From Nemertoderma westbladi (lineage: Eukaryota > Animalia > Xenacoelomorpha), in contig JAUCBJ010001088.1 in assembly GCA_032718475.1 (NCBI GenBank), positions 1 to 64,000 of the forward strand: a stretch of 64,000 bases of DNA. The letters run 5' to 3'. The position numbers were made by a program, and so were the translations under genes. Positions within the stretch are counted from its first letter, which is position 1; every line of letters starts with the position of its first letter. The notes beneath the pieces are model-generated. The model was not told where the DNA came from and searched no databases. It worked only from the letters and a program-made list of their open reading frames with translations. Positions 1,980 through 38,097 of this stretch are shown here, one piece after another.

Positions 1980-2309
1980 TTTATTTTAATTTAAAACATT
2001 AGGGGAAATAAGCTGAGCAAGTTATAGCGGCGGTGTTTTCTAATCAAAACGTATTTTCACTTTCAGTTAATTTTCTCTGGAGATCACCCTTTTCACTTAC
2101 GGTCAATTTGTACCATCCGGAAAGATCACCCATCCATGGTGGCATTCCCCGTTAAGTTAAGTCTTGAGCATTCTCGGAATGTATCAACTTTGATGTGTTT
2201 ATTTAACAACAAATGATGATATTATCCAATCAGAACACAGGGAATTGAAGAGTTTGGAATTATTTACTCGCTTCTCTATCGGAGCAAAGACCAAACTCGA
2301 CACAAAATT

Positions 2310-5300: not shown

Positions 5301-8300
5301 CCAAACACTACACCAGGAAAAGCAGAGTTTGGGAAAGGAATCCAAACACTACACCAGGAAAAGTAGAGTTTGGGAAAGGAATCCAAACACTACACCAGGA
5401 AAAGCAGAGTTTGGGAAAGGAATCCAAACACTACACCAGGAAAAGTAGAGTTTGGGAAAGGAATCCAAACACTACACCAGTAAAAGTTGAGTTTGGGAAA
5501 GTAATCCAACACTTCACCAGGAAAAGCAGAGTTTGGGTGTGAAAGGAATCCAAACACTACACCAGGAAAAGTAGAGTTTGGGAAAGGAATCCAAACACTA
5601 CACCAGGAAAAGCAGAGTTTGGGAAAGGAATCCAAACACTACACCAGGAAAAGTAGAGTTTGGGAAAGGAATCCAAACACTACACCAGGAAAAGCAGAGT
5701 TTGGGAAAGGAATCCAAACACTACACCAGGAAAAGTAGAGTTTGGGTGTGAAAGGAATCCAAACACTACACCAGGAAAAGCAGAGTTTGGGAAAGGAATC
5801 CAAACACTACACCAGGAAAAGCAGAGTTTGGGAAAGGAATCCAAACACTACACCAGGAAAAGTAGAGTTTGGGAAAGGAATCCAAACACTACACCAGGAA
5901 AAGCAGAGTTTGGGAAAGGAATCCAAACACTACACCAGGAAAAGTAGAGTTTGGGAAAGGAATCCAAACACTACACCAGGAAAAGTTGAGTTTGGGAAAG
6001 TAATCCAACACTTCACCAGGAAAAGCAGAGTTTGGGTGTGAAAGGAATCCAAACACTACACCAGGAAAAGTAGAGTTTGGGAAAGGAATCCAAACACTAC
6101 ACCAGGAAAAGCAGAGTTTGGGAAAGGAATCCAAACACTACACCAGGAAAAGTAGAGTTTGGGAAAGGAATCCAAACACTACACCAGGAAAAGCAGAGTT
6201 TGGGAAAGGAATCCAAACACTACACCAGGAAAAGTAGAGTTTGGGAAAGGAATCCAAACACTACACCAGGAAAAGTAGAGTTTGGGAAAGGAATCCAAAC
6301 ACTACACCAGGAAAAGTAGAGTTTGTGAAAGGAATCCAACACTTCACCAGGAAAAGTAGAGTACGGGAAAGGAATCCAACACTTCACCAGGAAAAGCAGA
6401 GTTTGGGTGGGAAAGGAATCCAAACACTATACCAGGAAAAGTAGAGTTTGGGAAAGGAATCCAACACTTCACCAGGAAAAGCAGAGTTTGGGTGGGAAAG
6501 GAATCCAAACACTACACCAGGAAAAGTAGAGTTTGGGAAAGGAATCCAAACACTACACCAGGAAAAGCAGAGTTTGGGAAAGGAATCCAAACACTACACC
6601 AGGAAAAGTAGAGTTTGGGAAAGGAATCCAAACACTACACCAGAAAAAGTAGAGTTTGGGAAAGGAATCCAAACACTACACCAGGAAAAGTAGAGTTTGT
6701 GAAAGGAATCCAACACTTCACCAGGAAAAGTAGAGTACGGGAAAGGAATCCAAACACTACACCAGGAAAAGCAGAGTTGTGGAAAGGAATCCAACACTTC
6801 ACCAGGAAAAGCAGAGTTTGGGAAAGGAATCCAAACACTACACTAGGAAAGGAGAGTTTGGGAAAGGAATCCAAACACTACACCAGGAAAAGCAGAGTTT
6901 GGGAAAGGAATCCAAACACTGCACCAGGAAAAGTAGAGTTTGGGAAAGGAATCCAACACTTCACCAGGAAAAGCAGAATTTGGGAAAGGAATCCAAACAC
7001 TACACCAGGAAAAGTAGAGTTTGGGAAAGGAATCCAAACACTACACCAGGAAAAGCAGAGTTTGGGAAAGTAATCCAAACACTACACTAGGAAAAGTAGA
7101 TTTGGGAAAGGAATCCAAACACTACACTAGGAAAAGCAGAGTTTGGGAAAGGAATCCAAACACTACTCTAGGCAAAGTAGATTTGGGAAAGGAATCCAAA
7201 CAATACACCAGGAAAAGCAGAGTTTGGAAAAGGAATCCAAACACTACACTAGGAAAAGCAGAGTTTGGGAAAGTAATCCAAACACTACACCAGGAAAAGC
7301 AGAGTTTGGGAAAGTAATCCAAACACTACACCAGGAAAAGCAGAGTTTGGGTGGGAAAGGAATCCAAACACTACACTAGGAAAAGTAGAGTTTGGGAAAG
7401 GAATCCAAACACTACACCAGGAAAAGCAGAGTTTGGGAAAGGAATCCAAACACTACACCAGGAAAAGTAGAGTTTGGGAAAGGAATCCAAACACTACACT
7501 AGGAAAAGTAGAGTTTGGGAAAGGAATCCAAACACTACACCAGGAAAAGTAGAGTTTGGGAAAGGAATCCAAACACTACACTAGGAAAAGTAGAGTTTGG
7601 GAAAGGAATCCAAACACTACACTAGGAAAAGCAGAGTTTGGGAAAGGAATCCAAACACTACACCAGGAAAAGCAGAGTTTGGGAAAGGAATCCAAACACT
7701 ACACCAGGAAAAGCAGAGTTTGGGAAAGGAATCCAAACACTACACCAGGAAAAGTAGAGTTTGGGAAAGGAATCCAAACACTACACCAGAAAAAGTAGAG
7801 TTTGGGAAAGGAATCCAAACACTACACCAGGAAAAGTAGAGTTTGTGAAAGGAATCCAACACTTCACCAGGAAAAGTAGAGTACGGGAAAGGAATCCAAA
7901 CACTACACCAGGAAAAGCAGAGTTGTGGAAAGGAATCCAACACTTCACCAGGAAAAGCAGAGTTTGGGAAAGGAATCCAAACACTACACTAGGAAAAGGA
8001 GAGTTTGGGAAAGGAATCCAAACACTACACTAGGAAAAGTAGATTTGGGAAAGGAATCCAAACACTACACTAGGAAAAGCAGAGTTTGGGAAAGGAATCC
8101 AAACACTACACTAGGAAAAGTAGATTTGGGAAAGGAATCCAAACAATACACCAGGAAAAGCAGAGTTTGGGAAAGGAATCCAAACACTACACTAGGAAAA
8201 GCAGAGTTTGGGAAAGTAATCCAAACACTAAATACACCAGGAAAAGCAGAGTTTGGGAAAGTAATCCAAACACTACACCAGGAAAAGCAGAGTTTGGGTG

Positions 8301-11300
8301 GGAAAGAAATCCAAACACTACACTAGGAAAAGTAGAGTTTGGGAAAGGAATCCAAACACTACACCAGGAAAAGCAGAGTTTGGGAAAGGAATCCAAACAC
8401 TACACCAGGAAAAGTAGAGTTTGGGAAAGGAATCCAAACACTACACCAGGAAAAGTTGAGTTTGGGAAAGTAATCCAACACTTCACCAGGAAAAGCAGAG
8501 TTTGGGTGTGAAAGGAATCCAAACACTACACCAGGAAAAGTAGAGTTTGGGAAAGGAATCCAAACACTACACCAGGAAAAGCAGAGTTTGGAAAAGGAAT
8601 CCAAACACTACACCAGGAAAAGTAGAGTTTGGGAAAGGAATCCAAACACTACACCAGGAAAAGTAGAGTTTGGGAAAGGAATCCAAACACTACACCAGGA
8701 AAAGTAGAGTTTGTGAAAGGAATCCAACACTTCACCAGGAAAAGTAGAGTACGGGAAAGGAATCCAACACTTCACCAGGAAAAGCAGAGTTTGGGTGGGA
8801 AAGGAATCCAAACACTACACCAGGAAAAGTAGAGTTTGGGAAAGGAATCCAACACTTCACCAGGAAAAGCAGAGTTTGGGTGGGAAAGGAATCCAAACAC
8901 TACACCAGGAAAAGTAGAGTTTGGGAAAGGAATCCAAACACTACACCAGGAAAAGCAGAGTTTGGGAAAGGAATCCAAACACTACACCAGGAAAAGTAGA
9001 GTTTGGGAAAGGAATCCAAACACTACACCAGAAAAAGTAGAGTTTGGGAAAGGAATCCAAACACTACACCAGGAAAAGTAGAGTTTGTGAAAGGAATCCA
9101 ACACTTCACCAGGAAAAGTAGAGTACGGGAAAGGAATCCAAACACTACACCAGGAAAAGCAGAGTTGTGGAAAGGAATCCAACACTTCACCAGGAAAAGC
9201 AGAGTTTGGGAAAGGAATCCAAACACTACACTAGGAAAAGGAGAGTTTGGGAAAGGAATCCAAACACTACACTAGGAAAAGTAGATTTGGGAAAGGAATC
9301 CAAACACTACACTAGGAAAAGCAGAGTTTGGGAAAGGAATCCAAACACTACACTAGGAAAAGTAGATTTGGGAAAGGAATCCAAACAATACACCAGGAAA
9401 AGCAGAGTTTGGGAAAGGAATCCAAACACTACACTAGGAAAAGCAGAGTTTGGGAAAGTAATCCAAACACTACACCAGGAAAAGCAGAGTTTGGGAAAGT
9501 AATCCAAACACTACACCAGGAAAAGCAGAGTTTGGGTGGGAAAGAAATCCAAACACTACACTAGGAAAAGTAGAGTTTGGGAAAGGAATCCTAACACTAC
9601 ACCAGGAAAAGCAGAGTTTGGGAAAGGAATCCAAACACTACACCAGGAAAAGTAGAGTTTGGGAAAGGAATCCAAACACTACACCAGGAAAAGTTGAGTT
9701 TGGGAAAGTAATCCAACACTTCACCAGGAAAAGCAGAGTTTGGGTGTGAAAGGAATCCAAACACTACACCAGGAAAAGTAAAGTTTGGGAAAGGAATCCA
9801 AACACTACACCAGGAAAAGCAGAGTTTGGGAAAGGAATCCAAACACTACACCAGGAAAAGTAGAGTTTGGGAAAGGAATCCAAACACTACACCAGGAAAA
9901 GCAGAGTTTGGGAAAGGAATCCAAACACTACACCAGGAAAAGTAGAGTTTGGGAAAGGAATCCAAACACTACACCAGGAAAAGTTGAGTTTGGGAAAGTA
10001 ATCCAACACTTCACCAGGAAAAGCAGAGTTTGGGTGTGAAAGGAATCCAAACACTACACCAGGAAAAGTAGAGTTTGGGAAAGGAATCCAAACACTACAC
10101 CAGGAAAAGCAGAGTTTGGGAAAGGAATCCAAACACTACACCAGGAAAAGTAGAGTTTGGGAAAGGAATCCAAACACTACACCAGGAAAAGCAGAGTTTG
10201 GGAAAGGAATCCAAACACTACACCAGGAAAAGTAGAGTTTGGGTGTGAAAGGAATCCAAACACTACACCAGGAAAAGCAGAGTTTGGGAAAGGAATCCAA
10301 ACACTACACCAGGAAAAGCAGAGTTTGGGAAAGGAATCCAAACACTACACCAGGAAAAGTAGAGTTTGGGAAAGGAATCCAAACACTACACCAGGAAAAG
10401 CAGAGTTTGGGAAAGGAATCCAAACACTACACCAGGAAAAGTAGAGTTTGGGAAAGGAATCCAAACACTACACCAGGAAAAGTTGAGTTTGGGAAAGTAA
10501 TCCAACACTTCACCAGGAAAAGCAGAGTTTGGGTGTGAAAGGAATCCAAACACTACACCAGGAAAAGTAGAGTTTGGGAAAGGAATCCAAACACTACACC
10601 AGGAAAAGCAGAGTTTGGGAAAGGAATCCAAACACTACACCAGGAAAAGTAGAGTTTGGGAAAGGAATCCAAACACTACACCAGGAAAAGCAGAGTTTGG
10701 GAAAGGAATCCAAACACTACACCAGGAAAAGTAGAGTTTGGGAAAGGAATCCAAACACTACACCAGGAAAAGTAGAGTTTGGGAAAGGAATCCAAACACT
10801 ACACCAGGAAAAGTAGAGTTTGTGAAAGGAATCCAACACTTCACCAGGAAAAGTAGAGTACGGGAAAGGAATCCAACACTTCACCAGGAAAAGCAGAGTT
10901 TGGGTGGGAAAGGAATCCAAACACTACACCAGGAAAAGTAGAGTTTGGGAAAGGAATCCAACACTTCACCAGGAAAAGCAGAGTTTGGGTGGGAAAGGAA
11001 TCCAAACACTACACCAGGAAAAGTAGAGTTTGGGAAAGGAATCCAAACACTACACCAGGAAAAGCAGAGTTTGGGAAAGGAATCCAAACACTACACCAGG
11101 AAAAGTAGAGTTTGGGAAAGGAATCCAAACACTACACCAGAAAAAGTAGAGTTTGGGAAAGGAATCCAAACACTACACCAGGAAAAGTAGAGTTTGTGAA
11201 AGGAATCCAACACTTCACCAGGAAAAGTAGAGTACGGGAAAGGAATCCAAACACTACACCAGGAAAAGCAGAGTTGTGGAAAGGAATCCAACACTTCACC

Positions 11301-14300
11301 AGGAAAAGCAGAGTTTGGGAAAGGAATCCAAACACTACACTAGGAAAGGAGAGTTTGGGAAAGGAATCCAAACACTACACCAGGAAAAGCAGAGTTTGGG
11401 AAAGGAATCCAAACACTGCACCAGGAAAAGTAGAGTTTGGGAAAGGAATCCAACACTTCACCAGGAAAAGCAGAGTTTGGGAAAGGAATCCAAACACTAC
11501 ACCAGGAAAAGTAGAGTTTGGGAAAGGAATCCAAACACTACACCAGGAAAAGCAGAGTTTGGGAAAGTAATCCAAACACTACACTAGGAAAAGTAGATTT
11601 GGGAAAGGAATCCAAACACTACACTAGGAAAAGCAGAGTTTGGGAAAGGAATCCAAACACTACTCTAGGCAAAGTAGATTTGGGAAAGGAATCCAAACAA
11701 TACACCAGGAAAAGCAGAGTTTGGAAAAGGAATCCAAACACTACACTAGGAAAAGCAGAGTTTGGGAAAGTAATCCAAACACTACACCAGGAAAAGCAGA
11801 GTTTGGGAAAGTAATCCAAACACTACACCAGGAAAAGCAGAGTTTGGGTGGGAAAGGAATCCAAACACTACACTAGGAAAAGTAGAGTTTGGGAAAGGAA
11901 TCCAAACACTACACCAGGAAAAGCAGAGTTTGGGAAAGGAATCCAAACACTACACCAGGAAAAGTAGAGTTTGGGAAAGGAATCCAAACACTACACTAGG
12001 AAAAGTAGAGTTTGGGAAAGGAATCCAAACACTACACCAGGAAAAGTAGAGTTTGGGAAAGGAATCCAAACACTACACTAGGAAAAGTAGAGTTTGGGAA
12101 AGGAATCCAAACACTACACTAGGAAAAGCAGAGTTTGGGAAAGGAATCCAAACACTACACCGGGAAAAGCAGAGTTTGGGAAAGGAATCCAAACACTACA
12201 CCAGGAAAAGCAGAGTTTGGGAAAGGAATCCAAACACTACACCAGGAAAAGTAGAGTTTGGGAAAGGAATCCAAACACTACACCAGAAAAAGTAGAGTTT
12301 GGGAAAGGAATCCAAACACTACACCAGGAAAAGTAGAGTTTGTGAAAGGAATCCAACACTTCACCAGGAAAAGTAGAGTACGGGAAAGGAATCCAAACAC
12401 TACACCAGGAAAAGCAGAGTTGTGGAAAGGAATCCAACACTTCACCAGGAAAAGCAGAGTTTGGGAAAGGAATCCAAACACTACACTAGGAAAAGGAGAG
12501 TTTGGGAAAGGAATCCAAACACTACACTAGGAAAAGTAGATTTGGGAAAGGAATCCAAACACTACACTAGGAAAAGCAGAGTTTGGGAAAGGAATCCAAA
12601 CACTACACTAGGAAAAGTAGATTTGGGAAAGGAATCCAAACAATACACCAGGAAAAGCAGAGTTTGGGAAAGGAATCCAAACACTACACTAGGAAAAGCA
12701 GAGTTTGGGAAAGTAATCCAAACACTACACCAGGAAAAGCAGAGTTTGGGAAAGTAATCCAAACACTACACCAGGAAAAGCAGAGTTTGGTTGGGAAAGA
12801 AATCCAAACACTACACTAGGAAAAGTAGAGTTTGGGAAAGGAATCCAAACACTACACCAGGAAAAGCAGAGTTTGGGAAAGGAATCCAAACACTACACCA
12901 GGAAAAGTAGAGTTTGGGAAAGGAATCCAAACACTACACCAGGAAAAGTTGAGTTTGGGAAAGTAATCCAACACTTCACCAGGAAAAGCAGAGTTTGGGT
13001 GTGAAAGGAATCCAAACACTACACCAGGAAAAGTAGAGTTTGGGAAAGGAATCCAAACACTACACCAGGAAAAGCAGAGTTTGGGAAAGGAATCCAAACA
13101 CTACACCAGGAAAAGTAGAGTTTGGGAAAGGAATCCAAACACTACACCAGGAAAAGTAGAGTTTGGGAAAGGAATCCAAACACTACACCAGGAAAAGTAG
13201 AGTTTGTGAAAGGAATCCAACACTTCACCAGGAAAAGTAGAGTACGGGAAAGGAATCCAACACTTCACCAGGAAAAGCAGAGTTTGGGTGGGAAAGGAAT
13301 CCAAACACTACACCAGGAAAAGTAGAGTTTGGGAAAGGAATCCAACACTTCACCAGGAAAAGCAGAGTTTGGGTGGGAAAGGAATCCAAACACTACACCA
13401 GGAAAAGTAGAGTTTGGGAAAGGAATCCAAACACTACACCAGGAAAAGCAGAGTTTGGGAAAGGAATCCAAACACTACACCAGGAAAAGTAGAGTTTGGG
13501 AAAGGAATCCAAACACTACACCAGAAAAAGTAGAGTTTGGGAAAGGAATCCAAACACTACACCAGGAAAAGTAGAGTTTGTGAAAGGAATCCAACACTTC
13601 ACCAGGAAAAGTAGAGTACGGGAAAGGAATCCAAACACTACACCAGGAAAAGCAGAGTTGTGGAAAGGAATCCAACACTTCACCAGGAAAAGCAGAGTTT
13701 GGGAAAGGAATCCAAACACTACACTAGGAAAGGAGAGTTTGGGAAAGGAATCCAAACACTACACTAGGAAAAGTAGATTTGGGAAAGGAATCCAAACACT
13801 ACACTAGGAAAAGCAGAGTTTGGGAAAGGAATCCAAACACTACTCTAGGAAAAGTAGATTTGGGAAAGGAATCCAAACAATACACCAGGAAAAGCAGAGT
13901 TTGGAAAAGGAATCCAAACACTACACTAGGAAAAGCAGAGTTTGGGAAAGTAATCCAAACACTACACCAGGAAAAGCAGAGTTTGGGAAAGTAATCCAAA
14001 CACTACACCAGGAAAAGCAGAGTTTGGGTGGGAAAGGAATCCAAACACTACACTAGGAAAAGTAGAGTTTGGGAAAGGAATCCAAACACTACACCAGGAA
14101 AAGCAGAGTTTGGGAAAGGAATCCAAACACTACACCAGGAAAAGTAGAGTTTGGGAAAGGAATCCAAACACTACACTAGGAAAAGTAGAGTTTGGGAAAG
14201 GAATCCAAACACTACACCAGGAAAAGTAGAGTTTGGGAAAGGAATCCAAACACTACACTAGGAAAAGTAGAGTTTGGGAAAGGAATCCAAACACTACACT

Positions 14301-15139
14301 AGGAAAAGCAGAGTTTGGGAAAGGAATCCAAACACTACACCAGGAAAAGCAGAGTTTGGGAAAGGAATCCAAACACTACACCAGGAAAAGTAGAGTTTGG
14401 GAAAGGAATCCAAACACTACACCAGGAAAAGTAGAGTTTGGGAAAGGAATCCAAACACTACACCAGGAAAAGCAGAGTTTGGGAAAGGAATCCAAACACT
14501 GCACCAGGAAAAGTAGAGTTTGGGAAAGGAATCCAACACTTCACCAGGAAAAGCAGAGTTTGGGAAAGGAATCCAAACACTACACCAGGAAAAGTAGAGT
14601 TTGGGAAAGGAATCCAAACACTACACCAGGAAAAGCAGAGTTTGGGAAAGTAATCCAAACACTACACTAGGAAAAGTAGAGTTTGGGAAAGGAATCCAAT
14701 CACTGCACCAGGAAAAGTAGAGTTTGGGAAAGGAATCCAACACTTCACCAGGAAAAGTAGAGTTTGGGTGGGAAAGGAATCCAAACACTACACCAGGAAA
14801 AGTAGAGTTTGGGAAAGGAATCCAAACACTACACTAGGAAAAGCAGAGTTTGGGAAAGGAATCCAAACACTACACCAGGAAAAGCAGAGTTTGGGAAAGG
14901 AATCCAAACACTACACCAGGAAAAGTAGAGTTTGGGAAAGGAATCCAAACACTACACCAGGAAAAGTAGAGTTTGGGAAAGGAATCCAAACACTACACCA
15001 GGAAAAGTAGAGTTTGGGAAAGGAATCCAAACAATACACCAGGAAAAGTAGAGTTTGGGAAAGGAATCCAAACACTACACCAGGAAAAGCAGAGTTTGGG
15101 AAAGGAATCCAAACACTACACCAGGAAAAGTAGAGTTTG
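2310..15139. repeat. 41-bp satellite array (~310 monomers) with internal hairpin and higher-order repeats
   Basis: Consensus GTAGAGTTTGGGAAAGGAATCCAAACACTACACCAGGAAAA, with 40-bp and 45-bp variants. GTAGAGTTTGG and CCAAACACTAC are inverted repeats (1 mismatch). Rare variants recur at 4497-bp spacing (ATCCTAACAC at 5091/9588; GTAAAGTTTG at 5281/9778). Confidence 0.98.
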
Positions 15140-15330
15140 ACTGCAATTTGACGTTTTTTGCCCATAATTTCTTAGCTTTTGAATATCTTTATGTTTTATT
15201 GTCAGATTTGCAATCAGTGGAAAAATGCAATCAAAATATGATATATACTTTTACCAGTTTTAAAAAAATATATATTTTGACAGCTACGTTTTTTTTTTTT
15301 TTTCACTTTCTTCGGCTGAGACCTGCACTG
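15140..15330. mobile_element. Possible right end of a Tc1/mariner-like non-autonomous element adjoining the satellite
   Basis: Unique AT-rich segment ends ...GAGACCTGCACTG followed by TA (a CAGTG-type terminus with TA). No matching left TIR seen in the window. Confidence 0.25.
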
Positions 15331-16810: not shown

Positions 16811-17217
16811 TGTTATAAACTGCCCTTAAATCCCGCTGGTTATCGCTTGGTAGTTTAGCCCGTCGTTATACTAGCTTAGGTATATTAGTGCAATACATAC
16901 CGTTTATGTTACACTGCTTCCCTGTAGGAAGGTTGCCCCATGGCCCTGCTTTCTATATCTGCCAATAGGATTTGAGTTGGTTTTGATTTTGACCTATCAC
17001 AGATCTACTGAACTGATTTTCCTATCTGTATGCTCGTTCTCTGTGATAGGTGAAATCATTTGTAAAATAAGGGTAGCTGGTATTCTTGTATTGTTATTCT
17101 TAGTAGGCCTATTCTACCTTATTGTTAACGTGTTTTGCATTTGTAATCTCTATATTAAATAATGAAATAACGATCCTGACAAAACTCGAAATCACAACGC
17201 CAATTTTGTGGTTTACA
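16811..17217 (+). repeat. 5' LTR of element A
   Basis: TGTTATAAAC...GTTTACA; 8 substitutions versus the 3' LTR (counted by eye, ~2%). Confidence 0.97.
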
Positions 17218-17220
17218 TTC

Positions 17221-17238
17221 TGGTTCCGATGCCGGGAA
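17221..17238 (+). promoter_or_regulatory. Primer binding site of element A, tRNA-Glu-like
   Basis: TGGTTCCGATGCCGGGAA lies 3 nt after the LTR and resembles the reverse complement of a tRNA-Glu 3' end (recalled consensus, not searched). Confidence 0.75.
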
Positions 17239-23121: not shown

Positions 23122-23548
23122 TTAAGTCGCGATTCCTCATTAGAAGTGCGCTATGACGAGATATTGCAAAGCTACATTGATAAAGGATTCGCAGTTAAAG
23201 TTACACCAGGAGAGCTAGAGGGCCCCCCTGGTCGTATTTGGTATTTGCCCCACCACCCAGTAATTAATCCGAATAAACCTAGTAAGATTCGAATAGTATT
23301 CGATGCCTCGGCTCGTTACCATGGTGTTTCCCTAAACGATAAACTCCTCCGTGGCCCGGATTTTCTCGCCAGTTTAGTAGGAGTCTTGTTGCGCTTTCGA
23401 GAGAAACATGTGGCGATTTCCGGAGACATTACTGCGATGTACCACCAAGTAGGAGTGCGGCGTGTAGACCAAGATTGTCTTCGCTTTCTCTGGGGTGGTG
23501 TTAAGCGTGATGGCCCGCCTGCGGTTTATAGGATGTTGAGACAGCTTT
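23122..23548 (+). pseudogene. Element A reverse transcriptase, N-terminal half
   Basis: WYLPHHPV, KIRIVFDAS, SLNDKLLRGP, LLRFR, DITAMYHQV, LRFLW are Pao-type RT motifs. Confidence 0.95.
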
Positions 23549-24090
23549 TGTTAGCTTATCCAATCCCGCTAAAACCCCATAAAAGTTAAGCCGATAAGCA
23601 ATATTGGGGGCCTCGAGATTGGGCAATCAACCAACTCGCGCCACCCCAACAAAATGGGAAGGTGAACCACACAATAAGGGTCAGGGGCCAAACCCCTAAC
23701 CAAGAGAGAACAGGTGGAGTGAACGGGACACTCCAAAGGGCGCCAACAAGGGTATCAACCAATCAGAGGGGGGCAAGGCATCGATTGAGTAGAGCAATAA
23801 GGCCACCGTGCAATATAACCTGTAACCAGTAATCATATTACCTCAGTTATCTCAGTGTTATTGGTACTACTGTAAGAATAGTTTAGCTAGGGAAGTACCG
23901 GGATTTCAGTTACCGTCTCCCGCCTTCCGTGTACAACAATTTTACCAGTCATCATTACCTATATCTATATTGTATATACCTCGGACATTGCAATACAACG
24001 AACAACAGAAACTCTTTATCTTTCACACACGGCGGGGACGCGTGAACTGACAAAACGGATAAATCGGGATCCTTCCTGGATCCCGTCACA
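23549..24090 (+). repeat. 5' LTR of element B
   Basis: TGTTAGCTTATCC...CCCGTCACA; ends with the hairpin CGGGATCC-TTCCT-GGATCCCG. Confidence 0.97.
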
Positions 24091-24162
24091 GTAACTGAAT
24101 CAGAGCTGCCGCCCTAGCTAGTCAAACTCAGCAACCACCAGCCACCAATCTACAGAAGAGAG

Positions 24163-26352
24163 ATGAGTCAGTCGGGAGAGACAACACCGACGCGGACCCC
24201 GGACGAAGAACAAACGATCCGCGAGGCCGCGACCAGGCGGTATAGGCCCACGACGCCGGAGCCATCGGTAACGGGTGACCCGGAAGTCCAAGATGAGGGG
24301 GTACGTCTGGAATCAGAATCCGAGTTGAGAGGAGAGGGACTCGAGTCGGAGGATAGAGAGAACGAGGTCGAGGGAGAAAGAGAGGAGTCGACACGGAACG
24401 AGGGTCGACGTGCCGACGTCGCAGGCCAGCCACAGGCCGAGGGCGACGGACGGCCCACCGGAACGGCGACGGTGGGGCCGACGGTACGACGCCGGACCCG
24501 GAGAGACGACGGGGATGTCGACACCGATGTCGCGGGCCAGCCATAGGCCGAGGGCGACAGACGGCCCACCGGAATGGCGACGGTGGGGCCGCCGGTACGA
24601 CGTCGAACCCGAAGAGACGGAGGAGAGGTCGGCGACGAGGACGTCGGGGTTTCTGAGCAACTTCAACGGGCCTACAACGCGACCCGGAGACTACTAGAGG
24701 AGGCCAGAAAGGGGAAAATGATAGACGAGGTAAAACTGAAGTCAGGACTAGGTAAGTCGGACAGACATTTATACTATCTAATGCATTTCGGGCAGAGAGA
24801 ATTGGCCGAGGAGAGAGCGACAAGGGTTGCCGAGGAACTGTATGACTCATGGCGGCATGGGGGTATACAACCTAGCGTAGTGTACATAGGGCCATATTTA
24901 ATCGATGCCCGGGGTATAAAATTAGTGGGTTGGAACAGACCTGAGGAGGGCGAATCCGAGGTTGACCCCGCGGATTCGGTCTCGTCGGTCGGAGGGAGTT
25001 CCGGGAGGAGGGGGAAAGTTAGTAGATCGGGAAGGCGGAGGGAATCCATCACAACCGATAAGTCTGCTACATCCTCCGCGAAAGAAAGACGGGTGAGAGA
25101 GATAGACGCTAGGTACCATCTCAATCTAGCAGTGCAAGGTCACCAAGAAGTAGATAGACGATTAGAGGAGGAGAGAGTGCTGCTAGAGGGGGAAATGGTG
25201 TTGATTAGAGAGATAAGAGAGAGGGCCGAAAGGGCCGCAAGGAGCCTTAGGGAGTATGAGGAAATAGAAGAAGAGGAACGTAAGGAGCGTGAGGCAAAGG
25301 GGGAGAAGGAACGCAAGGAGCGTGAGGCAAGGCAAAGGGAGGAAGCTAGGAGAGTGGTAGAGTTGGCCAAACAGGACGCGCGGGAGTGTGAGGTGAGAAT
25401 GGCCAGAAGGGAGCATGAGCGAAGGAAATTAAAGAAACAGCGAAGTGGGCTTGTAGAGTACAAAGCTAGACACATGCGCGAACTGGAACTGGCGCAGATG
25501 GGGGCGTCTGAGAGCGAGGCTGGCTCGAATATTCTCGAGGGGCCGGGGACAGTAGATGCGTTTATTAATACCCCAGTGAGAGGGACCGCACGACAGACAC
25601 GAAATTGGTGTGACCTTACGGGCGGGGGGGGGGGGGGGGGTAATAATAATATTACAGTAGATGACGTTAATATTAATAATACTGTATTGAACGACCCTAA
25701 CCAAATATTTATTGCAGGAAATACATTACCTAATAGTAATAATTATATTTTAAATCAGAACGATTCTAATATTAACGTGCAAAATAATTCTAATAATGTA
25801 GTTATACAAAGTAACCCAAGTAATTTAAATAATAACCCAAATTCTAATTTACAAAATAATCCAAATAATGTTATAACGTAAGATAACGTTTCTAACTTTG
25901 GTGCACAGGATAATTTGGGTGAACTAGAGGATAATCACAGTGGTGTTGTTAATGTAAATGCGTCGGACGTACATAGCCCGGCGGGTGAGGGCCTGGTAGG
26001 CCACGTAGTCAGTAGGCCGGAAGTGGCGGGGTTGAGCCAACCCGAGGTAGGCCTGGTAGGCCTCGTAAATAGTAGGCCGGAAGCGGCGGGGTTGAGCCAA
26101 CCCGAAGTAGGCCTGGTAGGCCAGGTAGTAGTAGAGAGAGAGGTGGGGGTAAGTGGACCCAGCCGCAATACAAACATTGTGTCGACTAGAGAGGGGTATA
26201 GAGGTGTGAGTGAGGTTAAATGTGGCGAGAGGGGGGGGGGGCTATGAGCGCCCCACCATTAGCGGCGAGAGGGGGGGGGGGGGGGGGGCGGAGAATGCCC
26301 CACAAGAGGGATATAGAAGTATAGTAAGAGGTAGCGAAGTTAGAAGTGGCGG
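24163..26352 (+). pseudogene. Long low-complexity/coiled-coil N-terminal extension of the element B polyprotein
   Basis: ORFs starting at 24163, 24574, 25915 and 26353 share one frame and are separated by stops at 24544, 25879 and 26245 (the last beside poly-G). Contains a 111-bp coding repeat, a PADSVS motif, an E/R-rich coiled coil and an N-rich tract. Confidence 0.75.
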
Positions 26353-29300
26353 GTGGGGGGGGGGGGGGCTATGAGCACCCCACCGCGAGAAGTTAGTGAC
26401 GAGAGAGGGGGGGCAGAGAGTGCCCCACAGGCGCCGGCGGATAATGCGAGGGCCGAAACAGGTAAACCGCAACACCCGGCGACGGAGAGTAATAGGGGGA
26501 TTGCGAGTATCCCCAGCGGCGTGCGATCGAGCGGAGAGAGGCAGGTTGACGTCGCGAGAGGGCGGACGGAGTGTCGAGCCCGATCAGAGGAGAGAAGAAG
26601 AACGGTGGAGTTTAACCGGGAGATCGACGAGAGATCTCACGAGCGGGAATACTACACTGAAAGAAGAAGAAGAGAAGACGGTAGGAGAAGTATCGCCGCG
26701 AACGATAGAAGAACGAGGACGGATAGCGAACCGTCGGTGGTTGAGGTGGAAGAAGAGAGCCGGTGGGGTCGAACTACGGGAGATTGCCGTCGTCCCGGAG
26801 AGACGCGACCCGACGAGACGCACTATGCGTCGAGAGAGGGGTACATGATGTACCGGCACGAGGATGAGAGCAGTAGAGGGGGTCGAAGAGAAACCTTCCG
26901 ACAGGATATACCTGCCGATCGAGAATACGGTAGCCGCGGGGAGGATAATTCGAGGAGAATAAACTTCGATCCCGAGCAACACATACAGACTGTAAGACAT
27001 ACTGTAGGCCTTACTGCACATACCATAGGCCATGCTGACAGAAGCAATGTAGGCGATAGAATAGTGCGGACAACGGGATTAAACCCGGAAGTCGCGGAAT
27101 ACATTCCGGTAGGTAGGCCAGAAGCTGATAGGCCTATACCGGTACCAGTGCAGCAGTATGACTACAGCACCAAAGGATATAACATATACCCAGGGGAGGG
27201 GGAAATTATTGCGGATAGATGCATGGGCCCCAATATATTAACATCAACCCCAGTACCAAGCATACCGGTGGGGGGGGGGGGGGGACAGGGTGACATTCCC
27301 CCATCGCAATATCAACAATATACCCCAATAGGAGCGAGAACAACGAACCCCTTGGATGAAAATAAGTCATGCGACACAGAAATATGGAGGGGGCCGCTAC
27401 CCCCAATGATATACCCAAGTCAGAGAAAAACAGGGAATAGAACGGATGGACCGCACCAAACAAGGGAAACTATGCAGCATCCATCGAACCCATTGGAGGC
27501 GCAGGCGGTGGGGATGGCCACGTTGATCGATGCGTTAAAAACCAGGATCGAGTTACCACCCGTGGAACCATTCAAATTCGATGGGAGTAGGCCGGAAGAA
27601 TATCTACAGTTTCGGCGCATGTATAGTAACGAGATACTAACAAAAAACTTAACGCAGGCGGAGTGCCTGAAGTATCTGCAAGTATACACAGGAGGCCCAG
27701 CATACGACATCGTGAGGCAATACCAGGGTATAGAAGGCGGCTTCACGACGGCATGGCGGGCACTGGATAGGGAATACGGGCACCCAGCTAAGATCATCAG
27801 GCAAACCCTGAGAGGCATAACAACGGGTGGCCTACAGGATAATCCCGTTAGCATTAAGACGTTTGCTAACAAAGTCGAAAAGGCGCTGATCGTGCTAAAG
27901 ACGCTAGACGCACCATACGAGCTCAACGCGTCCAACAACATCACCACGATAGCGCAGGCACTACCGATGTGGCTGCGCAATAAGTGGAGAAAAGTCGCTT
28001 TCTCCACTAGAGACAGAAAGGGTGCGGAACCGGGTCTAGAAGAAATGTCCAGCTTCTTAAGCTACGAAGCTGAACTAATAACCGACCCAGTCTATAGCGA
28101 AGATAGCCTGGGAAAGGGACCAAAGACGGATTACAATCGACCGAAACCAGAGCACAACACGTCGAACGCATTACCAAAGCTCAGGCAATCACTGCCATAT
28201 GCAGCAACGCAGGGGACTGCGAGTCCACAAGTAGCCGAGGGTAAGACCGGACAGGGGAAAAATAACAACACGAATGAACATAACCCTAATACATCCAGTA
28301 GGCCGAACCCAAGCTATAAAAACAGTAGGGACTTTAGTACAAATGCAGTTGCGATACGCGATGCGCTGTACAAGGACGGCTACGACCCAAAGAGCAAATG
28401 CCAGCTACATACAAATGCAAGGCATCTAACCATGAATTGCAGCTACTGGCAAGCGTTACCCAGGGAAGATCAGGTAGAATACGCGGACAGAAATGACATC
28501 TGCTCGCGATGTGTGATGAGTGGACATCGAGCGAGGCAATGCAAGGAGACGCCGGTTAAGTTCCGTCGAGACAAAGGCCAAACGATGGCAACGAGCACGG
28601 TAGGGGCGAAGAAGAGAGGAACGGTGCTACTTGGGGTAGTACCGGTGCGAGTGATTGGGGAAGGCAATCGATCAGTAACCACTCTGATGCTGGTTGATAG
28701 CGGAGCTGCCTTCACGTTAGTCGAGGATTGGGTGGCCGAAGAAATAGGATTGAGGACGAGGCCAAGTAGAATGGCAGTAACAACCATCTCGAGCAAAGAC
28801 GAAGTCCTAGAGATGAGGACCGGACGGTGCGCGATAGCAGCAGTGGCACCGGGATGTGACTACGGGGCAACCATCGACCCCATCCAAGTGATAGAGTCAA
28901 TTAATATCAATGCCAGGCGACCAACCAACATCGAGGTCGAGCAATATAAATTCCTGGACAGTATTGACTTCTCAATCCCGGAGGTGGACGTCAGGAAGGT
29001 ATCCATCATAGTAGGAATGGACTGCCCGACGGCCCACGAGAGAATGCAAACGGTCTTCGGCGAAGACAGGGAGTGTGACCCAGTGGCGATATTGACACCA
29101 TTCGGGTGGACACTGAGTGGCCCAATCAAGAGCAAGATACCATTTAGGATGTCGGAGACATCAGGATGCATGTTCGCGGGAACAATGCAGGAAATGGGTG
29201 ATGAGGGAGCAGAGGAGCAGCTTAAAAGACTGCTCAGACAAGATTTCGAGGGACTAAAAGAAACCGGGGTCGGGACCTCGGTAGAAGACAAACAGGCTTT

Positions 29301-30225
29301 ACAAAGCGTGGAAGAATCGATGAAGTGCGACGAGGGGCGGTACACTATAGGAATGGTATGGAAACTACCGAAAATACCGCTGCCCGATAACAGAGGGATG
29401 GTACTCACGAGACTCCGCAAGCTGAAACAAACACTAAAACGGAGCCCCGAGAAGAATGAGTACATCCACAGAACGATCAAGAAGTACGTCGAGAAAGGAT
29501 GGGCCGTGGAGTTACCGGTCGACGAACCGAACACGGACAGGACATATTACCTGCCACTCCACGTGGCTTTAGACCCAAAGAAAGGTAAACTGCGGATGGT
29601 GGTTGACGCATCGGCAAAGACCAACGGAAAATGCTTAAACGACTATCTGTTAGAAGGCCCAAACATATACAATTCGGGCATAGAGGTGTTACTTAGATTT
29701 CGAAATGGGAAACACGCCTTCACGTGTGACATAGAAGGCATGTTCAACCAAGTCCGTGTAACGGAAGAAGATAGCGACAGTCAACGCTTCTTATGGTATA
29801 ACGGCGAAGAAGAACCGCCGATAATACCAGCATATAAGATGATAGTACAGAACATGGGTGCCAAGTCGTCTTCATTTACGACGACTATGGCAGTGAGAGA
29901 CACAGTAAAGGGGAAGGAAGATAGATACAGCAGTAGGGCCGTCGATATGATTCGACGCGGCTTCTACGTAGACGACGGAATGGAGTCTGGAAATACGGTT
30001 AAGGAGATACTGGATACAGGGCGCGAGGTTCGCGACATCCTAAAGGGATCCGGCTTTAACCTGACCAAATTCCAATCCAGTTCGGAAGAATTTATAAAAG
30101 CCATAGAGGACAGGAAGCCAGAATCGACCATGGATAATCCCACAACAGCCAAAGGGCAGGACATGGCGATTAAGAGAACAGAATCTCAGCAGAAGGCATT
30201 GGGAATCGTGTGGGATAGAGAAGAC
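26353..30225 (+). CDS. Element B gag, zinc knuckle, protease and reverse transcriptase
   Basis: FDGSRPEEYLQF; CSRCVMSGHRARQC; LVDSGAAFT; YYLPLH, RMVVDAS, DIEGMFNQV, FYVDD. A +1 frameshift near 30222 leads into TKRGYVSYIARIYDPLG. Confidence 0.93.
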
Positions 30226-32605
30226 AGACGAACTGAAGTATCAGCTGAGCCAGGAGGGCGCAGACATCCACACGAAGAGGGGCTATGTATCGTATATAGC
30301 AAGGATATACGATCCCCTAGGCCTAGCATCCCCATTATTAGTCACGGGGAAACAGATACTCAAGAGAGTATACAAATTGAAAGATGAATGGGACGTAGAG
30401 GTACCAGAGGAAATCAAGAAACAGTGGAGCAAATGGACAGGAAACTTGGAGAAGATGGGAACATACAACATGCCAAGGGTGTATTTCCCGGATGGGAACA
30501 TGACGAATCTGGACCTACACATGTTCTCCGACGCGTCGTTGGAAGCGTACGGAGCGGCACTCTACTTAGTACAACGAGAGGGGGCTCATAGGCCAAGGCT
30601 AGCCTTTAGCAAAGCAAAGTCAACGCCGCCAGATTCAGCATCAGTTCCCAAGTTAGAATTGACAGCTGCGAGACTAGGAGTAAGAGCCACAGCCTACCTA
30701 GTGGATACTATTCCCAACATAGTGGAGACACACTACTGGACGGACTCCATGGTAGTGCTTGGTTGGCTACACAACGAAAGGACGAGATACCCGATATTCG
30801 TCGCGAATAGAGTGGACGAAATAAGGGCGAGCACAGAACTGGAAAGGTGGCACTACTGCCCAACAGACGAGAACCCAGCGGACTTGCTGTCGAGGGGCGT
30901 GGAACGCCACACTTTCCTGAAGAAGGAAGTATTGTGGCAACATGGGCCACAATTTCTGAGCGATAGGGAGGCCTGGCCGCCGATGAGGAAGGTGGACCCG
31001 GGCTCGGAAGTAGTATCAGAAGGAGAAGAGGGAGATTCAGAGGGAGAAGAGATATACTCCCAGATGGTGAGGGAGATTAGGGACGTGCAACCAGGAAGGG
31101 AACTGTGCGATAACCCAACGGATAAACTCCTCAGCTACAGTTCTAGTTGGTATAAGACCAAGAAACTAGTGGCGTACTGGAGAGCCTTCGGGAAATTCCT
31201 TGCGGGAGTTGGCAAGGACAAGAAGATCAGGACAGCCATAGATCTGGAAGGAGCGGCCAAGGCAGTGATCCGCTATGAACAACGGAAGAACTACGGCGAC
31301 GAGGTGGAACGCGTCGGTAACCATCAGCACCTCCGACGGGACAGCGAGCTGATTACGCTGTCGCCACAACTCAATGACGACGGGATTCTAGTAATGAATT
31401 CTAGGGTGGGATACAACAACAGCATAATCGTACCACCGAAACCCATCATCATTCCTACAGGATCGCCAATAGTCCACCAGATTATATGGGACTCCCACAA
31501 ATCGATATTGCATGGGGGCACCAACCGAACCCTCACAGAGATAAGGAGGACCTATTGGGTCAAACAATTAAGGAAGAAGGTTAAAGCGGTAGTGGGGCAG
31601 TGCCAGACCTGCCGACGAGCGAAGAAGGAGCGAGCCGTACAGGAGATGGCGCCACTACCGGCGAGTAGGGTAAGACAGCACGACCCGCCATTTACGCATT
31701 GCGGTGTGGACATGTTCGGGCCGATAAAGATCAAAGTGATGCGGCACACGGAGAAACGCTACGGCATTATCTTCGTATGTAACAACACGCGGGCAGTAGG
31801 GATAGAACTCGCCCAAGATGCAACCGCATCAGCATTCATTAATGCCTTGGAAAGGTTTAGGGACCGCAAAGGTGGGACGATCGCAGTGATATACAGCGAC
31901 AATGGCACCAACTTTGTAGGCGCAGAGAATGAGATGGCAGAGGCTTTGGACATCCTGGAAGGGGAGGAAGTCAGGGCGGCCATGAGACGACGACAAGTGA
32001 AGTGGGAAAGGAGGACGCCGTATGCACCACATACACTAGGATGCGTCGAGAGACTGGTGGGCAGTTCAAAGCGTCTAATGACGAAGCTAATGAACACCCA
32101 CATGGTCACTGAGGACGTCTTACGGACAGTGCTTGCGAAGTGCGAGGGGATCATTAATAGCAGACCGCTATATCCGGAGAATGATGACCCTGAGTCACTA
32201 GACGTGCTGACGCCTAGCCATTTCCTGATGGAAAGGCCAGCGACCATCGATATGCGGGGTGTAGACCCAGATGATATACACTCCCGCCAGAGTTGGAAAG
32301 TCGCTAAAGCAATTAGCGCAGAGTATTGGAGGAGGTGGGTAGAAGAATACCTACCCACACTCCATAAAAGAAGCAAATGGAGGAAGCCGAATAGAGAGTT
32401 GAAAGAGGGAGATCTCGTAATCGTTACGGATGATACTATCATCAACAACCAATGGCGGTTGGCGAGAATTGTAGGCACTTACTCCGACGAGGACGGAAGA
32501 GTCCGATCGGTAGAAGTGCGGATAGGTGGTAAGATAGGTGCGAAGGACAGAAAAACCTACAGGAGAGCTGTAGGGAAATGCTGTCTCCTAGAAGGGGCAC
32601 CTTAA
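30226..32605 (+). CDS. Element B RNase H and integrase
   Basis: LHMFSDAS, PKLEL, WTDS, NPADLLSRG; HHCC (H...HGG...CQTC); GVDMFGP, YSDNGTNF, ERLV, NSRPL; DUF5641-like tail. Confidence 0.95.
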
Positions 32606-32759
32606 TGGAGTCTGAGAGGAGTTTTTAGTCGTCCAAGTTTTGGACTGAGGGGGGTGGGATTGAGGGCGAGACGCCCTTCCCACACAAATACAAATAAAAT
32701 AAAAATAAAATAATAGTACGTAGTAGGTACGCAGTTAATAGGCAGAAGGTAGAAGGGTT

Positions 32760-33220
32760 AGAAGGTACGTGGTACCTAGAGTTAGTTAGTTAGTTAAGGG
32801 TACGTAGTACCGCTAGTTAGCTAGAGTAGTTAGAGGGTACGTAGTACCATTAGTTAGTAGGAGTTAGTTAGTTAGCTAGTTGAGGGTACGTAGTACCGCT
32901 AGCTAGCTAGAGAGTAAGAGTCAGAAGGTACGTAGTACCATTGGTTAGTAAGAGTTAGAATAGTTAGTTGGTTGAGGGTACGTAGTACCGCTAACTAGCT
33001 AGAGAGTAAGAGTCAGAGGGTACGTAGTACCATTGGTTAGTAAGAGTTAGAATAGTTAGTTGGTTGAGGGTACGTAGTACCGCTAACTAGCTAGAGAGTA
33101 AGAGTTAGGATAGTTAGTTGGTTGAGGGTACGTAGTACCGCTAACTAGCTAGAGAGTAAGAGTTAGAAGGTATGTAGTACCGTAAGAGAGTAGGTAGTTA
33201 AAGGGTACGTAGTACCGACA
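32760..33220. repeat. Degenerate tandem repeat in the 3' region of element B
   Basis: About 11 copies of AGGGTACGTAGTACC (GGTAC-GTA-GTACC inverted repeat) separated by (AGTT)/(AGCT)-rich spacers. Confidence 0.9.
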
Positions 33221-34405
33221 GTTAGAGAGAGAGAGAGTGAGAATTAGTAAGAAAGTACTAGTTAGTAAGAGATAGAGGTAGAGGGGTATATACGACATAG
33301 ATATTAGTTAGCAATTAGAGGGGGGCGTATGGGTACAGCTGGATAAATCGTGTGGCCACGCGACGCATACTGTTGTACTGCATAGGCCCACAGAGTAGGC
33401 CAGAATGTGGATTAGAGAGTAGGATAATCCATAGGCAATAGTAAGTAGTAGCACAGTAGAACAAAACAAAACAAAAATAAATAGGATAGGGCTGGAAGTT
33501 ACAAATTATGGTAACAGTAGGAAAATCATTCTGGAACACAATAAAAGTAACTGATAGAATAGAATAGGATAGATGGGAAGCGAAGCGATTGGAAGAAATC
33601 GCTAGACAGGAGAAGACAGAAAGCAGATCCCAGGGGAGCTATAGTGACTAGGAAGCGACCCAGGGAGGAAGCCATCTCGAGAGAGACGGGGAGGTTCCCG
33701 AGGTCGGGAGGAATAGACTGAGACTTTAGTGTGGTACGCCTGGAAGGCGCCACGCGAGACGTGCGAACTATTAAATACAAATTTAATTTCAATCTAAATA
33801 ATCAATATAAGTGCAATTTGTATGTATGTACGTAGTAATCAGTAATCTAGAAATATATATACGCTCGATGTAAGTACTATAGTCATACAACCTTTCTCAA
33901 TTAGCTACTGGGAATGGGGACTAAATTGACTATGGGACTATGGACGAGACACGACGACTTCACACTTCTTGAGTGCGACGGCACGGGAGGGGAGCTGACA
34001 TTCGTCAGAGGGGATGAGGTAGTCAATGAGGGGTCGAGGGAAGAATGATAGTGCGGAGTGCGGAGAGGGTGCCGATGCAATCCTAGCGTGTGGGGGGGGG
34101 GGGGGGAAGGAGTAAGAGGCTGAGTAAGGGACAGAGAAGTCCGAGAGTAGAGTGAGAGGAGAGTAGAGTCAAGGGCGAAAGTGTTGGGGAAACAAAAATC
34201 GTGTGAGAGACGAGCACGATCGGCCCGACGTGGACGCCAGGCGTAAAGGGTAGCGTTATCATACCCAGAGGGAGCGGCCTGGAAAGCCGACTCCGAGAGA
34301 AAAGATTTCCACCCCACACCCGATGCTAGATCGGGATCCAGCGGGATTGTAGCGCACTTTTCGGTTGATGCTATCTTCTCACCGGGAAGATAGCATGGGG
34401 GGGAG

Positions 34406-34947
34406 TGTTAGCTTATCCAATCCCGCTAACACCCCATAAAAGTTAAGCCGATAAGCAATATTGGGGGCCTCGAGATTGGGCAATCTACCAACTCGCGCCA
34501 CCCCAACAAAATGGGAAGGTGAACCACACAATAAGGGTCAGGGGCCAAACCCCTAACCAAGAGAGAACAGGTGGAGTGAACGGGACACTCCAAAGGGCGC
34601 CAACAAGGGTATCAACCAATCAGAGGGGGGCAATGCATCGATTGAGTAGAGCAATAAGGCCACCGTGCAATATAACCAGTAACCAGTAATCATATTACCT
34701 CAGTTATCTCAGTGTTATTGGTACTACTGTAAGAATAGTTTAGCTAGGGAAGTACCGGGATTTCAGTTACCGTCTCCCGCCTTCCGTGTACAACAATTTT
34801 ACCAGTCATCATTACCTATATCTATATTGTATATACCTCGGACATTACAATACAACGAACAACAGAAACTCTTTATCTTTCACACACGGCGGGGACGCGT
34901 GAACTGACAAAACGGATAAATCGGGATCCTTCCTGGATCCCGTCACA
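34406..34947 (+). repeat. 3' LTR of element B
   Basis: Direct repeat of 23549-24090. Confidence 0.97.
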
Positions 34948-37690: not shown

Positions 37691-38097
37691 TGTTACAAAC
37701 TGCCCTTAAATCCTGCTGGTTATCGCTTGGTAGTTTAGCCCGTCGTTATACTAGCTTAGGTATATTAGTGCAATACATACCGTTTATGTTACACTGCTTC
37801 CCTGTAGGAAGGTTGCCCCATGGCCCTGCTTTCTGTATCTGCCAATAGGATTTGAGTTGGTTTTGATTTTGACCTATCACAGATCTACTGAACTGATTTT
37901 CCTATCTGTATGCTCGTTCTCTGTGATAGGTGAAATTATTTGTAAAATAAGGGTAGCTGGTATTCTTGTATTGTTATTCTTAGAAGGCCTATTCTACCTT
38001 ATTGTTAACGTGTTTTGCATATGTAATCTCTATATTAAATAATGAAATAACGATCCCGACAAAACTCGAAATCACAACGCCAATTTTTTGGTTTACA
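37691..38097 (+). repeat. 3' LTR of element A
   Basis: Direct repeat of 16811-17217, followed by ATGGG. Confidence 0.97.

Follow-up and report, generated by a model that had tools for sequence, protein, structure and literature searches.

What primes minus-strand DNA synthesis in a BEL/Pao retrotransposon that has no primer-binding site for a tRNA? This question is raised by element B, which is located at positions 23549-34947 on the plus strand of the 64,000-nucleotide stretch of DNA analyzed here (hereafter, the window). A tRNA-type site would start with TGG 0-5 nt after the LTR and be complementary to the 3' end of a tRNA, but B contains no TGG within 24091-24130; its LTR is followed directly by GTAACTGAATC (24091-24101), and the first-pass annotation of this DNA had likewise noted the lack of a TGG-initiated site. 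To our knowledge, Tf1-type Ty3/gypsy elements are the only ones in which self-primed reverse transcription has been shown; predictions exist for a few plant lineages. Our analysis suggests that B likely primes minus-strand synthesis with a segment of its own LTR RNA (23883-23913) rather than with a tRNA.

Anatomy and classification of element B

Self-comparison of the window delineates B as a direct repeat of 543 bp, with copies at 23549 and 34406, flanked by GCTTT on the left and GATTT on the right, that is, a 5-bp target-site duplication with one mismatch. The element starts with TGTTAG and ends with GTCACA. Because the last G of the repeat also opens the duplication at the 3' end, the LTR spans 23549-24090 and the internal region begins with G24091, as had been assumed when the self-match was first noticed; a 543-bp LTR combined with a 4-bp duplication was rejected in favor of a TG..CA LTR combined with a 5-bp duplication. 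The 5' LTR (23549-24090) and the 3' LTR (34406-34947), both 542 bp long and on the plus strand, differ at 5 of 542 positions and contain the same primer segment. The 3' LTR is preceded by the polypurine tract GGGGGGGAG (34397-34405), which, together with the TG..CA LTRs and the 5-bp duplication, conforms to the BEL/Pao type. A perfect 11-bp hairpin (34368-34396) lies directly before this tract.

The gag-pol region (24163-32605, plus strand), delineated from open reading frames and Pfam searches, is broken in this copy by a stop at 24544-24546, a break between 25881 and 26344 and a frame change near 30.2 kb. It encompasses DUF1759 (E-value 2.4e-10), an aspartyl protease, a reverse transcriptase with the YVDD motif, Peptidase_A17 (1.8e-40), an integrase and DUF5641 (3.3e-24). 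The reverse transcriptase gave no match to Pfam RVT_1 at 1e-3, and the YVDD motif was identified by reading. The domain order, protease-reverse transcriptase-RNase H-integrase, and the Pao-type domain set identify B as a member of BEL/Pao. The pol of B has 652 relatives, with 29-36% identity among the 120 listed. The element B family is young and abundant; it is very abundant in the host, yet its pol relatives show at most 36% identity among the 120 listed of the 652. The gag region before DUF1759 (24163-27500) is unusually long, charged and repetitive, with a 111-bp duplication at 24413-24631, and the 1.8-kb non-coding 3' region (32605-34405) contains purine-rich tandem repeats at about 32780-33280; no long plus-strand open reading frame and no env-like gene were seen in the latter region.

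Element B is nested in another BEL/Pao retrotransposon, element A (LTRs at 16811-17217 and 37691-38097), and interrupts its reverse transcriptase region. Element A serves as an internal control: it carries a TGG-type primer site, TTC-TGGTTCCGATGCCGGGAA (17221-17238, plus strand), the normal tRNA site ascribed to it previously, and the longest match of this site to its own LTR is 4 nt. An ATGGG duplication accompanies element A, which is itself inserted in an array of 63-bp tandem repeats. The window also contains satellite arrays of 41 bp (2200-15140), with higher-order repeats of about 1.44 and 4.5 kb, and of 80 bp (51000-56000).

A self-complementary site at the LTR boundary

As the first-pass annotation had stated, TTCAGTTAC (23905-23913), within the LTR, is the exact reverse complement of the first 9 nt of GTAACTGAATC. 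Beyond these contiguous 9 nt, the match amounts to 11 bp with one bulge and involves GATTTCAGTTAC (23902-23913, plus strand), the core of the predicted self-primer, whose 3' end is predicted at C23913, in the context AC|CGT, from the match, the folds and the comparison with relatives. Thus, B possesses a self-complementary site of about 11 nt at the LTR boundary, of the kind that characterizes Tf1/sushi elements. Among 5000 dinucleotide shuffles of the LTR, 11 contained a 9-nt match at offset 0 and 50 contained one at any offset of 0-5; a duplex energy as good as that of B was reached in 13 of 1000 shuffles.

A second block of the leader, 24112-24121, is complementary to 23883-23892, and the resulting 10-bp helix, predicted with a pairing probability of 1.00 in folds that include the leader, lies on exactly the same antidiagonal as the 9-bp core helix. 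In total, 23 of the 31 positions of 24091-24121 pair with 23883-23913, two G-U pairs counted, and the score of this whole diagonal was matched in 1 of 300 shuffles. A run of at least 9 on the core antidiagonal occurred in 1 of 20,000 leader shuffles, and within 5 registers in 7 of 20,000, in a test that was chosen after the helix had been seen. The upstream block of the predicted self-primer spans 23880-23892 (plus strand).

Two further structures proposed in the earlier annotation appear in the predicted folds. One is an R-U5 stem (23914-23924 with 24031-24040), which loops out about 105 nt and begins immediately after the predicted primer end, at C23914; the other is an 8-bp U5 hairpin (24065-24085; probability 1.00) located 5 nt before the LTR end. 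The folds additionally reveal a U5 decoy, GTGAACTGA (24042-24050), that is an alternative partner of 23906-23913: it pairs with the core with a probability of 0.84 at 37 °C and 0.55 at 20 °C, and the core (23902-23913) pairs with the primer site with a probability of 0.16 and 0.45, respectively. At 37 °C, the self-priming conformer lies 1.6 kcal/mol above the minimum; at 20 °C, it is itself the minimum. Speculatively, the U5 look-alike might serve as a switch by concealing the primer end.

Variation among sister copies

The B stretch is present in 5 of the 6 sequencing runs listed, and none of these is annotated as an RNA run. Sister copies were studied in the contigs of 4 runs, representing at most three samples and consisting of thousands of short contigs without haplotypes; the substitutions considered are those seen among the rows listed (40 of 364 and 40 of 56). 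A canonical TGG site in sister copies had been named as an observation that would speak against self-priming; no TGG variant is present among the rows listed.

The majority base at 24097 is A in all four runs, with about 73-91% of the summed contig depth (10521/12273, 6221/6800, 9186/10184 and 165/228), so that the perfect 9-mer is confined to a minority of the family; with A24097, the contiguous match falls to 6 bp followed by a bulge and 5 bp. G24097, the minority state found in this copy, is the base that copying of the primer (C23907) would write, and primer-templated overwriting of the site at this position is a prediction of self-priming. At 23909, A accounts for 51-65% in three of the four runs and for 0 of 142 in the fourth, and in the absence of a matching T24095 it reduces the core to only -1.6 kcal/mol. 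A leader form that would match this common change G23909A, GTAATTAAATC (T24095), is represented by one contig each in X2 and X3 among the rows listed. All three forms of the primer site seen can make 11 bp with one bulge, at -10.3 kcal/mol, -7.4 kcal/mol (A24097) and, if A23909 and T24095 go together, -5.1 kcal/mol. Compensation in the sister copies is thus only partly visible.

Behind 24117 and 24120, the loose ends of the leader in sister contigs read TTAAACTC and AACTC, and with these leaders the outer helix with 23880-23892 becomes 13 bp long and ends at A23880. Sister contigs in which the loop 23918-24025 is replaced (joint 23917-24026, with 110 other letters) retain both arms of the R-U5 stem.

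Predicted self-primers in related BEL/Pao families

The comparison with relatives, proposed earlier as a search for compensatory changes across BEL families, employed an alignment of 12 of the nearer homologs of B as the query. Of the 620 BEL loci confirmed in metagenome contigs, the best 80 were used, which is not a random sample of BEL elements. A distant direct repeat was detected in 36 of the 80 loci, and 32 of these were examined, leaving out L001, L012, L028 and L039, in which the repeat was not taken as an LTR; in 5 of the 32 the LTR start was not found, so that 27 loci were readable. An exact complement of 10-15 nt starting 0-5 nt after the LTR was found in 23 of the 27; among the remaining four, L048 shows an imperfect signal and three show nothing. 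A TGG-type site turned up neither in the scan of the relatives nor in the 20 non-redundant leaders. After removal of four near-duplicates, the self-matches represent 19 non-redundant families.

Seven of these 19 families have a contiguous match like B, and in the other 12 (L034 among them) the complement arises only upon removal of a predicted GT(A/G)AG..YAG intron from the LTR, a pattern that inverted duplication at the DNA level cannot explain. In 8 loci the repeat itself defines the LTR end independently, and 7 of these match; for five of the loci with such ends the match was reached in 0-3 of 200 shuffles; where the LTR end was chosen by scanning every ACA, there were 12 matches, each of which was reached in 0-3 of 40 shuffles. 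In L048 (1420-1812), exact matching had missed an LTR intron, GTAAGT..CTAG, whose junction can pair with about 16 nt of the primer site if one wobble and one mismatch are allowed.

The letters of the primer site differ from family to family and follow the family's own LTR: own matches are 10-15 nt long, and at least 10 nt is reached in 21 of 462 cross pairs, the top ones among the matches listed being between kin; the best cross match of B is 8 nt. Thus, the search yielded family-specific self-matches in 19 families. The predicted primer ends are AC in 14 of the 19 and AT in 5, and the same AC|CGT end as in B is found in L007, L013, L016, L067 and L069. Short upstream extensions are visible in many relatives and are singly significant (at most 11 of 200 shuffles) in 5 of the 19; in the same single test, the extension of B gives 5 of 200. 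At 37 °C, the predicted pairing of the primer is at least 0.77 in 14 of the 19 families and below 0.2 in 4.

In B itself, no comparable splice-built primer was detected: its best match across a junction, which 15 of 200 shuffles reached, is 8 nt long and so shorter than the contiguous 9 nt, and joining the donor-like GTAAG (23872) to the acceptor-like TTTCAG (23904-23909) gives no match; both motifs are altered in common sister variants.

In a tree built by IQ-TREE in quick mode from 50 rows and 757 columns of the RNase H-integrase region, with which FastTree agrees, B and the 20 such loci fall into a 36-row group (SH-aLRT 97) that leaves the tRNA-primed element A outside. B forms a long branch that is not inside the clade of the 20 loci, and the grouping does not establish one origin; given this branch and an identity of at most 37% to the tree rows, the relatives are distant ones. 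Two sister pairs in the tree, L056/L063 and L071/L069, each combine a family with a spliced primer and one with a contiguous primer, which suggests repeated loss of the intron.

Other searches were negative. No tRNA genes were detected in the 64-kb window or in the 60 of the 80 loci scanned; a pattern search of viral contigs gave 107 matches, none of them a relative; the DNA pattern of the U5 hairpin plus the primer site of B had no match in metagenome contigs; and an Rfam search with 23500-24300 returned one chance match and nothing meaningful.

A tentative model of priming and the competing explanations

Self-priming by an LTR segment ending at C23913, as originally proposed, is supported by the in-register second helix, the sister variants and the 19 relative families. 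Speaking against it are the majority A24097 and the frequent A23909 in sister copies, the preference of the core for the U5 decoy at 37 °C, the outer helix being located upstream of the primer core, unlike in Tf1, the distance of the relatives, and the few relative loci with an imperfect signal or none. Under this model, transcription would start at 23880 or further upstream, with a position near 23845 as a probable candidate, and the 5' part of the RNA would fold over onto the leader. The RNA would then be cut after C23913, probably by the RNase H of the element, by analogy with Tf1, and from the new 3' OH, paired to G24091, the reverse transcriptase would synthesize DNA across U5 and R. A capped fragment of about 34-69 nt, rather than an 11-mer, would thus act as the primer, with about 21-24 bp keeping it in place, and B would represent the intron-free form of an arrangement that is predicted to require splicing in many relatives.

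The best surviving alternative, which we nevertheless consider unlikely, is that the primer is the 3' LTR copy of 23883-23913 or the copy on a second packaged RNA, a variant that would still be independent of tRNA. Complementarity cannot tell the copies apart, the segment is unchanged in both LTRs, and a 3'-LTR model has reportedly been proposed for Suzu, a BEL/Pao element of Fugu. Against this, the 5' copy makes a compact local fold in which the R-U5 stem starts exactly at the predicted cut, and a primer taken from the 3' end would presumably require removal of the poly(A) while also having to serve strand transfer. In Tf1, moreover, it is the 5' copy that is used (PMC10085805).

It seems somewhat less probable still that a host RNA, such as a tRNA half or another small RNA, is the primer and that the LTR-leader helices function in packaging, dimerization or as a translation switch that masks the site. 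Priming by half-tRNAs does exist in Ty1/copia lineages (PMC6317226), and the U5 decoy and the core mismatches in sister copies indicate that the core helix is not rigidly kept. Yet the site differs in each family and matches that family's own LTR, so that a host RNA would need to keep pace with each of these changes; many of the matches are to splice junctions, and the pairing stops at 0-5 nt from the end of the LTR, which is where the end of a primer has to lie.

The original suggestion for the primer was the very 5' end of the transcript, as in Tf1, and its second initiator-like site, TCAGTTAT (23843-23850), is the candidate for this role, one that we regard as improbable. The sequence is present as reported, about 31 nt downstream of the TATA-like AATATAA (23812), and the two (23812-23850, plus strand), with the initiator-like TCAGTT, make up a candidate promoter and transcript start; in some sister copies, where the bases upstream in the site vary, the match extends to 10 nt through a loose end before 23843. 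The fold of 23840-24110 that had been suggested as a check does pair 23843-23850 with the primer site, but it cuts off the leader at 24110: in all six folds that hold the site and the full leader (3 spans at 2 temperatures), the probability of this pairing is 0.00. With the majority A24097, it reaches -3.6 kcal/mol; it ends in a G-U pair, and it lacks the AC|C context of the relatives. The picture of the primer as the first bases of the transcript gives way to that of an internal end on what is probably a longer 5' fragment, and with it falls the earlier caveat that a start at the A of TCAGT would leave only 6 paired nt. An origin of the match by chance, or by neutral inverted duplication within a single dead copy, is largely refuted and very improbable: the 9-nt match alone has a 0.2-1% chance and the coding region of this copy is broken, but the second helix is in register (1 of 20,000), the sister contigs form both helices from other letters, and the same layout is found in 19 relative families.

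Returning to self-priming by the 5' LTR segment, the evidence from relatives can be extended to a broader proposition, to which we assign about an even chance of being correct: that a large branch of animal BEL/Pao elements does without tRNA priming and has its own RNA cut after a conserved AC (often AC|CGT), with a long two-block 5' fragment as the primer. The core of this primer would be built by the spliceosome from two LTR exons in many families and hard-wired without an intron in others, including B, and a U5 decoy would toggle between a priming and a non-priming fold.

Comparison with known priming systems

The first-pass annotation knew of no case of self-priming in BEL/Pao. No paper on the subject was found in our literature search, which had little coverage of subscription journals, and to that extent the statement stands; the terms primer, priming, tRNA and PBS are absent from the main text of the BEL/Pao surveys PMC3118150 and PMC6238403, priming and tRNA are absent from the main text of PMC554778, and the accessible parts of PMC6934838, PMC5445492, PMC3601003 and PMC2774666 contain nothing on BEL priming.

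On the other side is a proposal on Suzu that Frame, Cutfield and Poulter reportedly made in 2001 for this one element, namely non-tRNA priming by an LTR-complementary sequence involving the 3' LTR; the idea of self-priming in BEL/Pao may therefore have a precedent. By that account, Suzu resembles B in that it belongs to BEL, lacks a tRNA site that could be used and has a short LTR-complementary motif, and differs from it in the 3'-LTR model.

Tf1 and Tf2 of Schizosaccharomyces pombe and Tj1 are the closest functional parallels (Tj1, PMC4600332; Tf2, PMC5341516). Like B, these elements have no tRNA site and carry, directly after the CA of the LTR, a site complementary to LTR RNA, with a core of about 11 bp and flanking duplexes; the site starts with ATAAC in Tf1 (PMC11042837) and with GTAAC in B. 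Tf1/sushi elements are Ty3/gypsy chromoviruses, whereas B belongs to BEL/Pao by its domains and homologs and so does not share their ancestry. The structures differ too: in the Tf1 'pretzel', both outer duplexes use the LTR downstream of the primer (PMC10085805), whereas the leader-side helix of B uses the upstream LTR, so that in the predicted folds B does not form the three-duplex arrangement, although its U5-side duplexes fit. Because the predicted primer end of B is internal, its primer is probably longer than 11 nt, unlike that of Tf1, and in relatives it spans a predicted intron. By analogy, B most likely works like Tf1 self-priming, although it is not a Tf1/sushi member.

The predictive rule applied to B was the same as that for TAR, Houba and Osr-1 of Ty1/copia and for Tcn1, plant elements from other superfamilies. 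In the accessible text of PMC6317226, self-priming is predicted for Tcn1 and TAR, the rule being at least 10 nt of LTR complementary to the sequence 0-5 bp after the LTR, which the contiguous 9 nt of B would just miss; that text makes no mention of a self-primer formed at a splice junction. The opposite case within BEL/Pao is provided by Achilles, primed by tRNA-Tyr, and element A, which share with B the domain set, the TG..CA LTRs and the 5-bp duplication, but have an 18-nt site for a tRNA 3' end (for Achilles, PMC4580426) that is absent in B.

Implications

If self-priming in B is real, BEL/Pao would be the third superfamily with this mechanism, in a different architecture, which would imply that self-priming arose or spread more than once. 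At stake is an architecture with a long bipartite primer, a conserved cut context and, in relatives, dependence on splicing. Annotation pipelines would miss the 9-nt match of B and all splice-junction matches, and self-priming would explain why primer sites are missing for many BEL/Pao elements in such pipelines. The coordinates in B are exact and can be tested for the cut and for compensatory changes. For the elements themselves, a primer of their own would mean freedom from control through tRNA 3' fragments.
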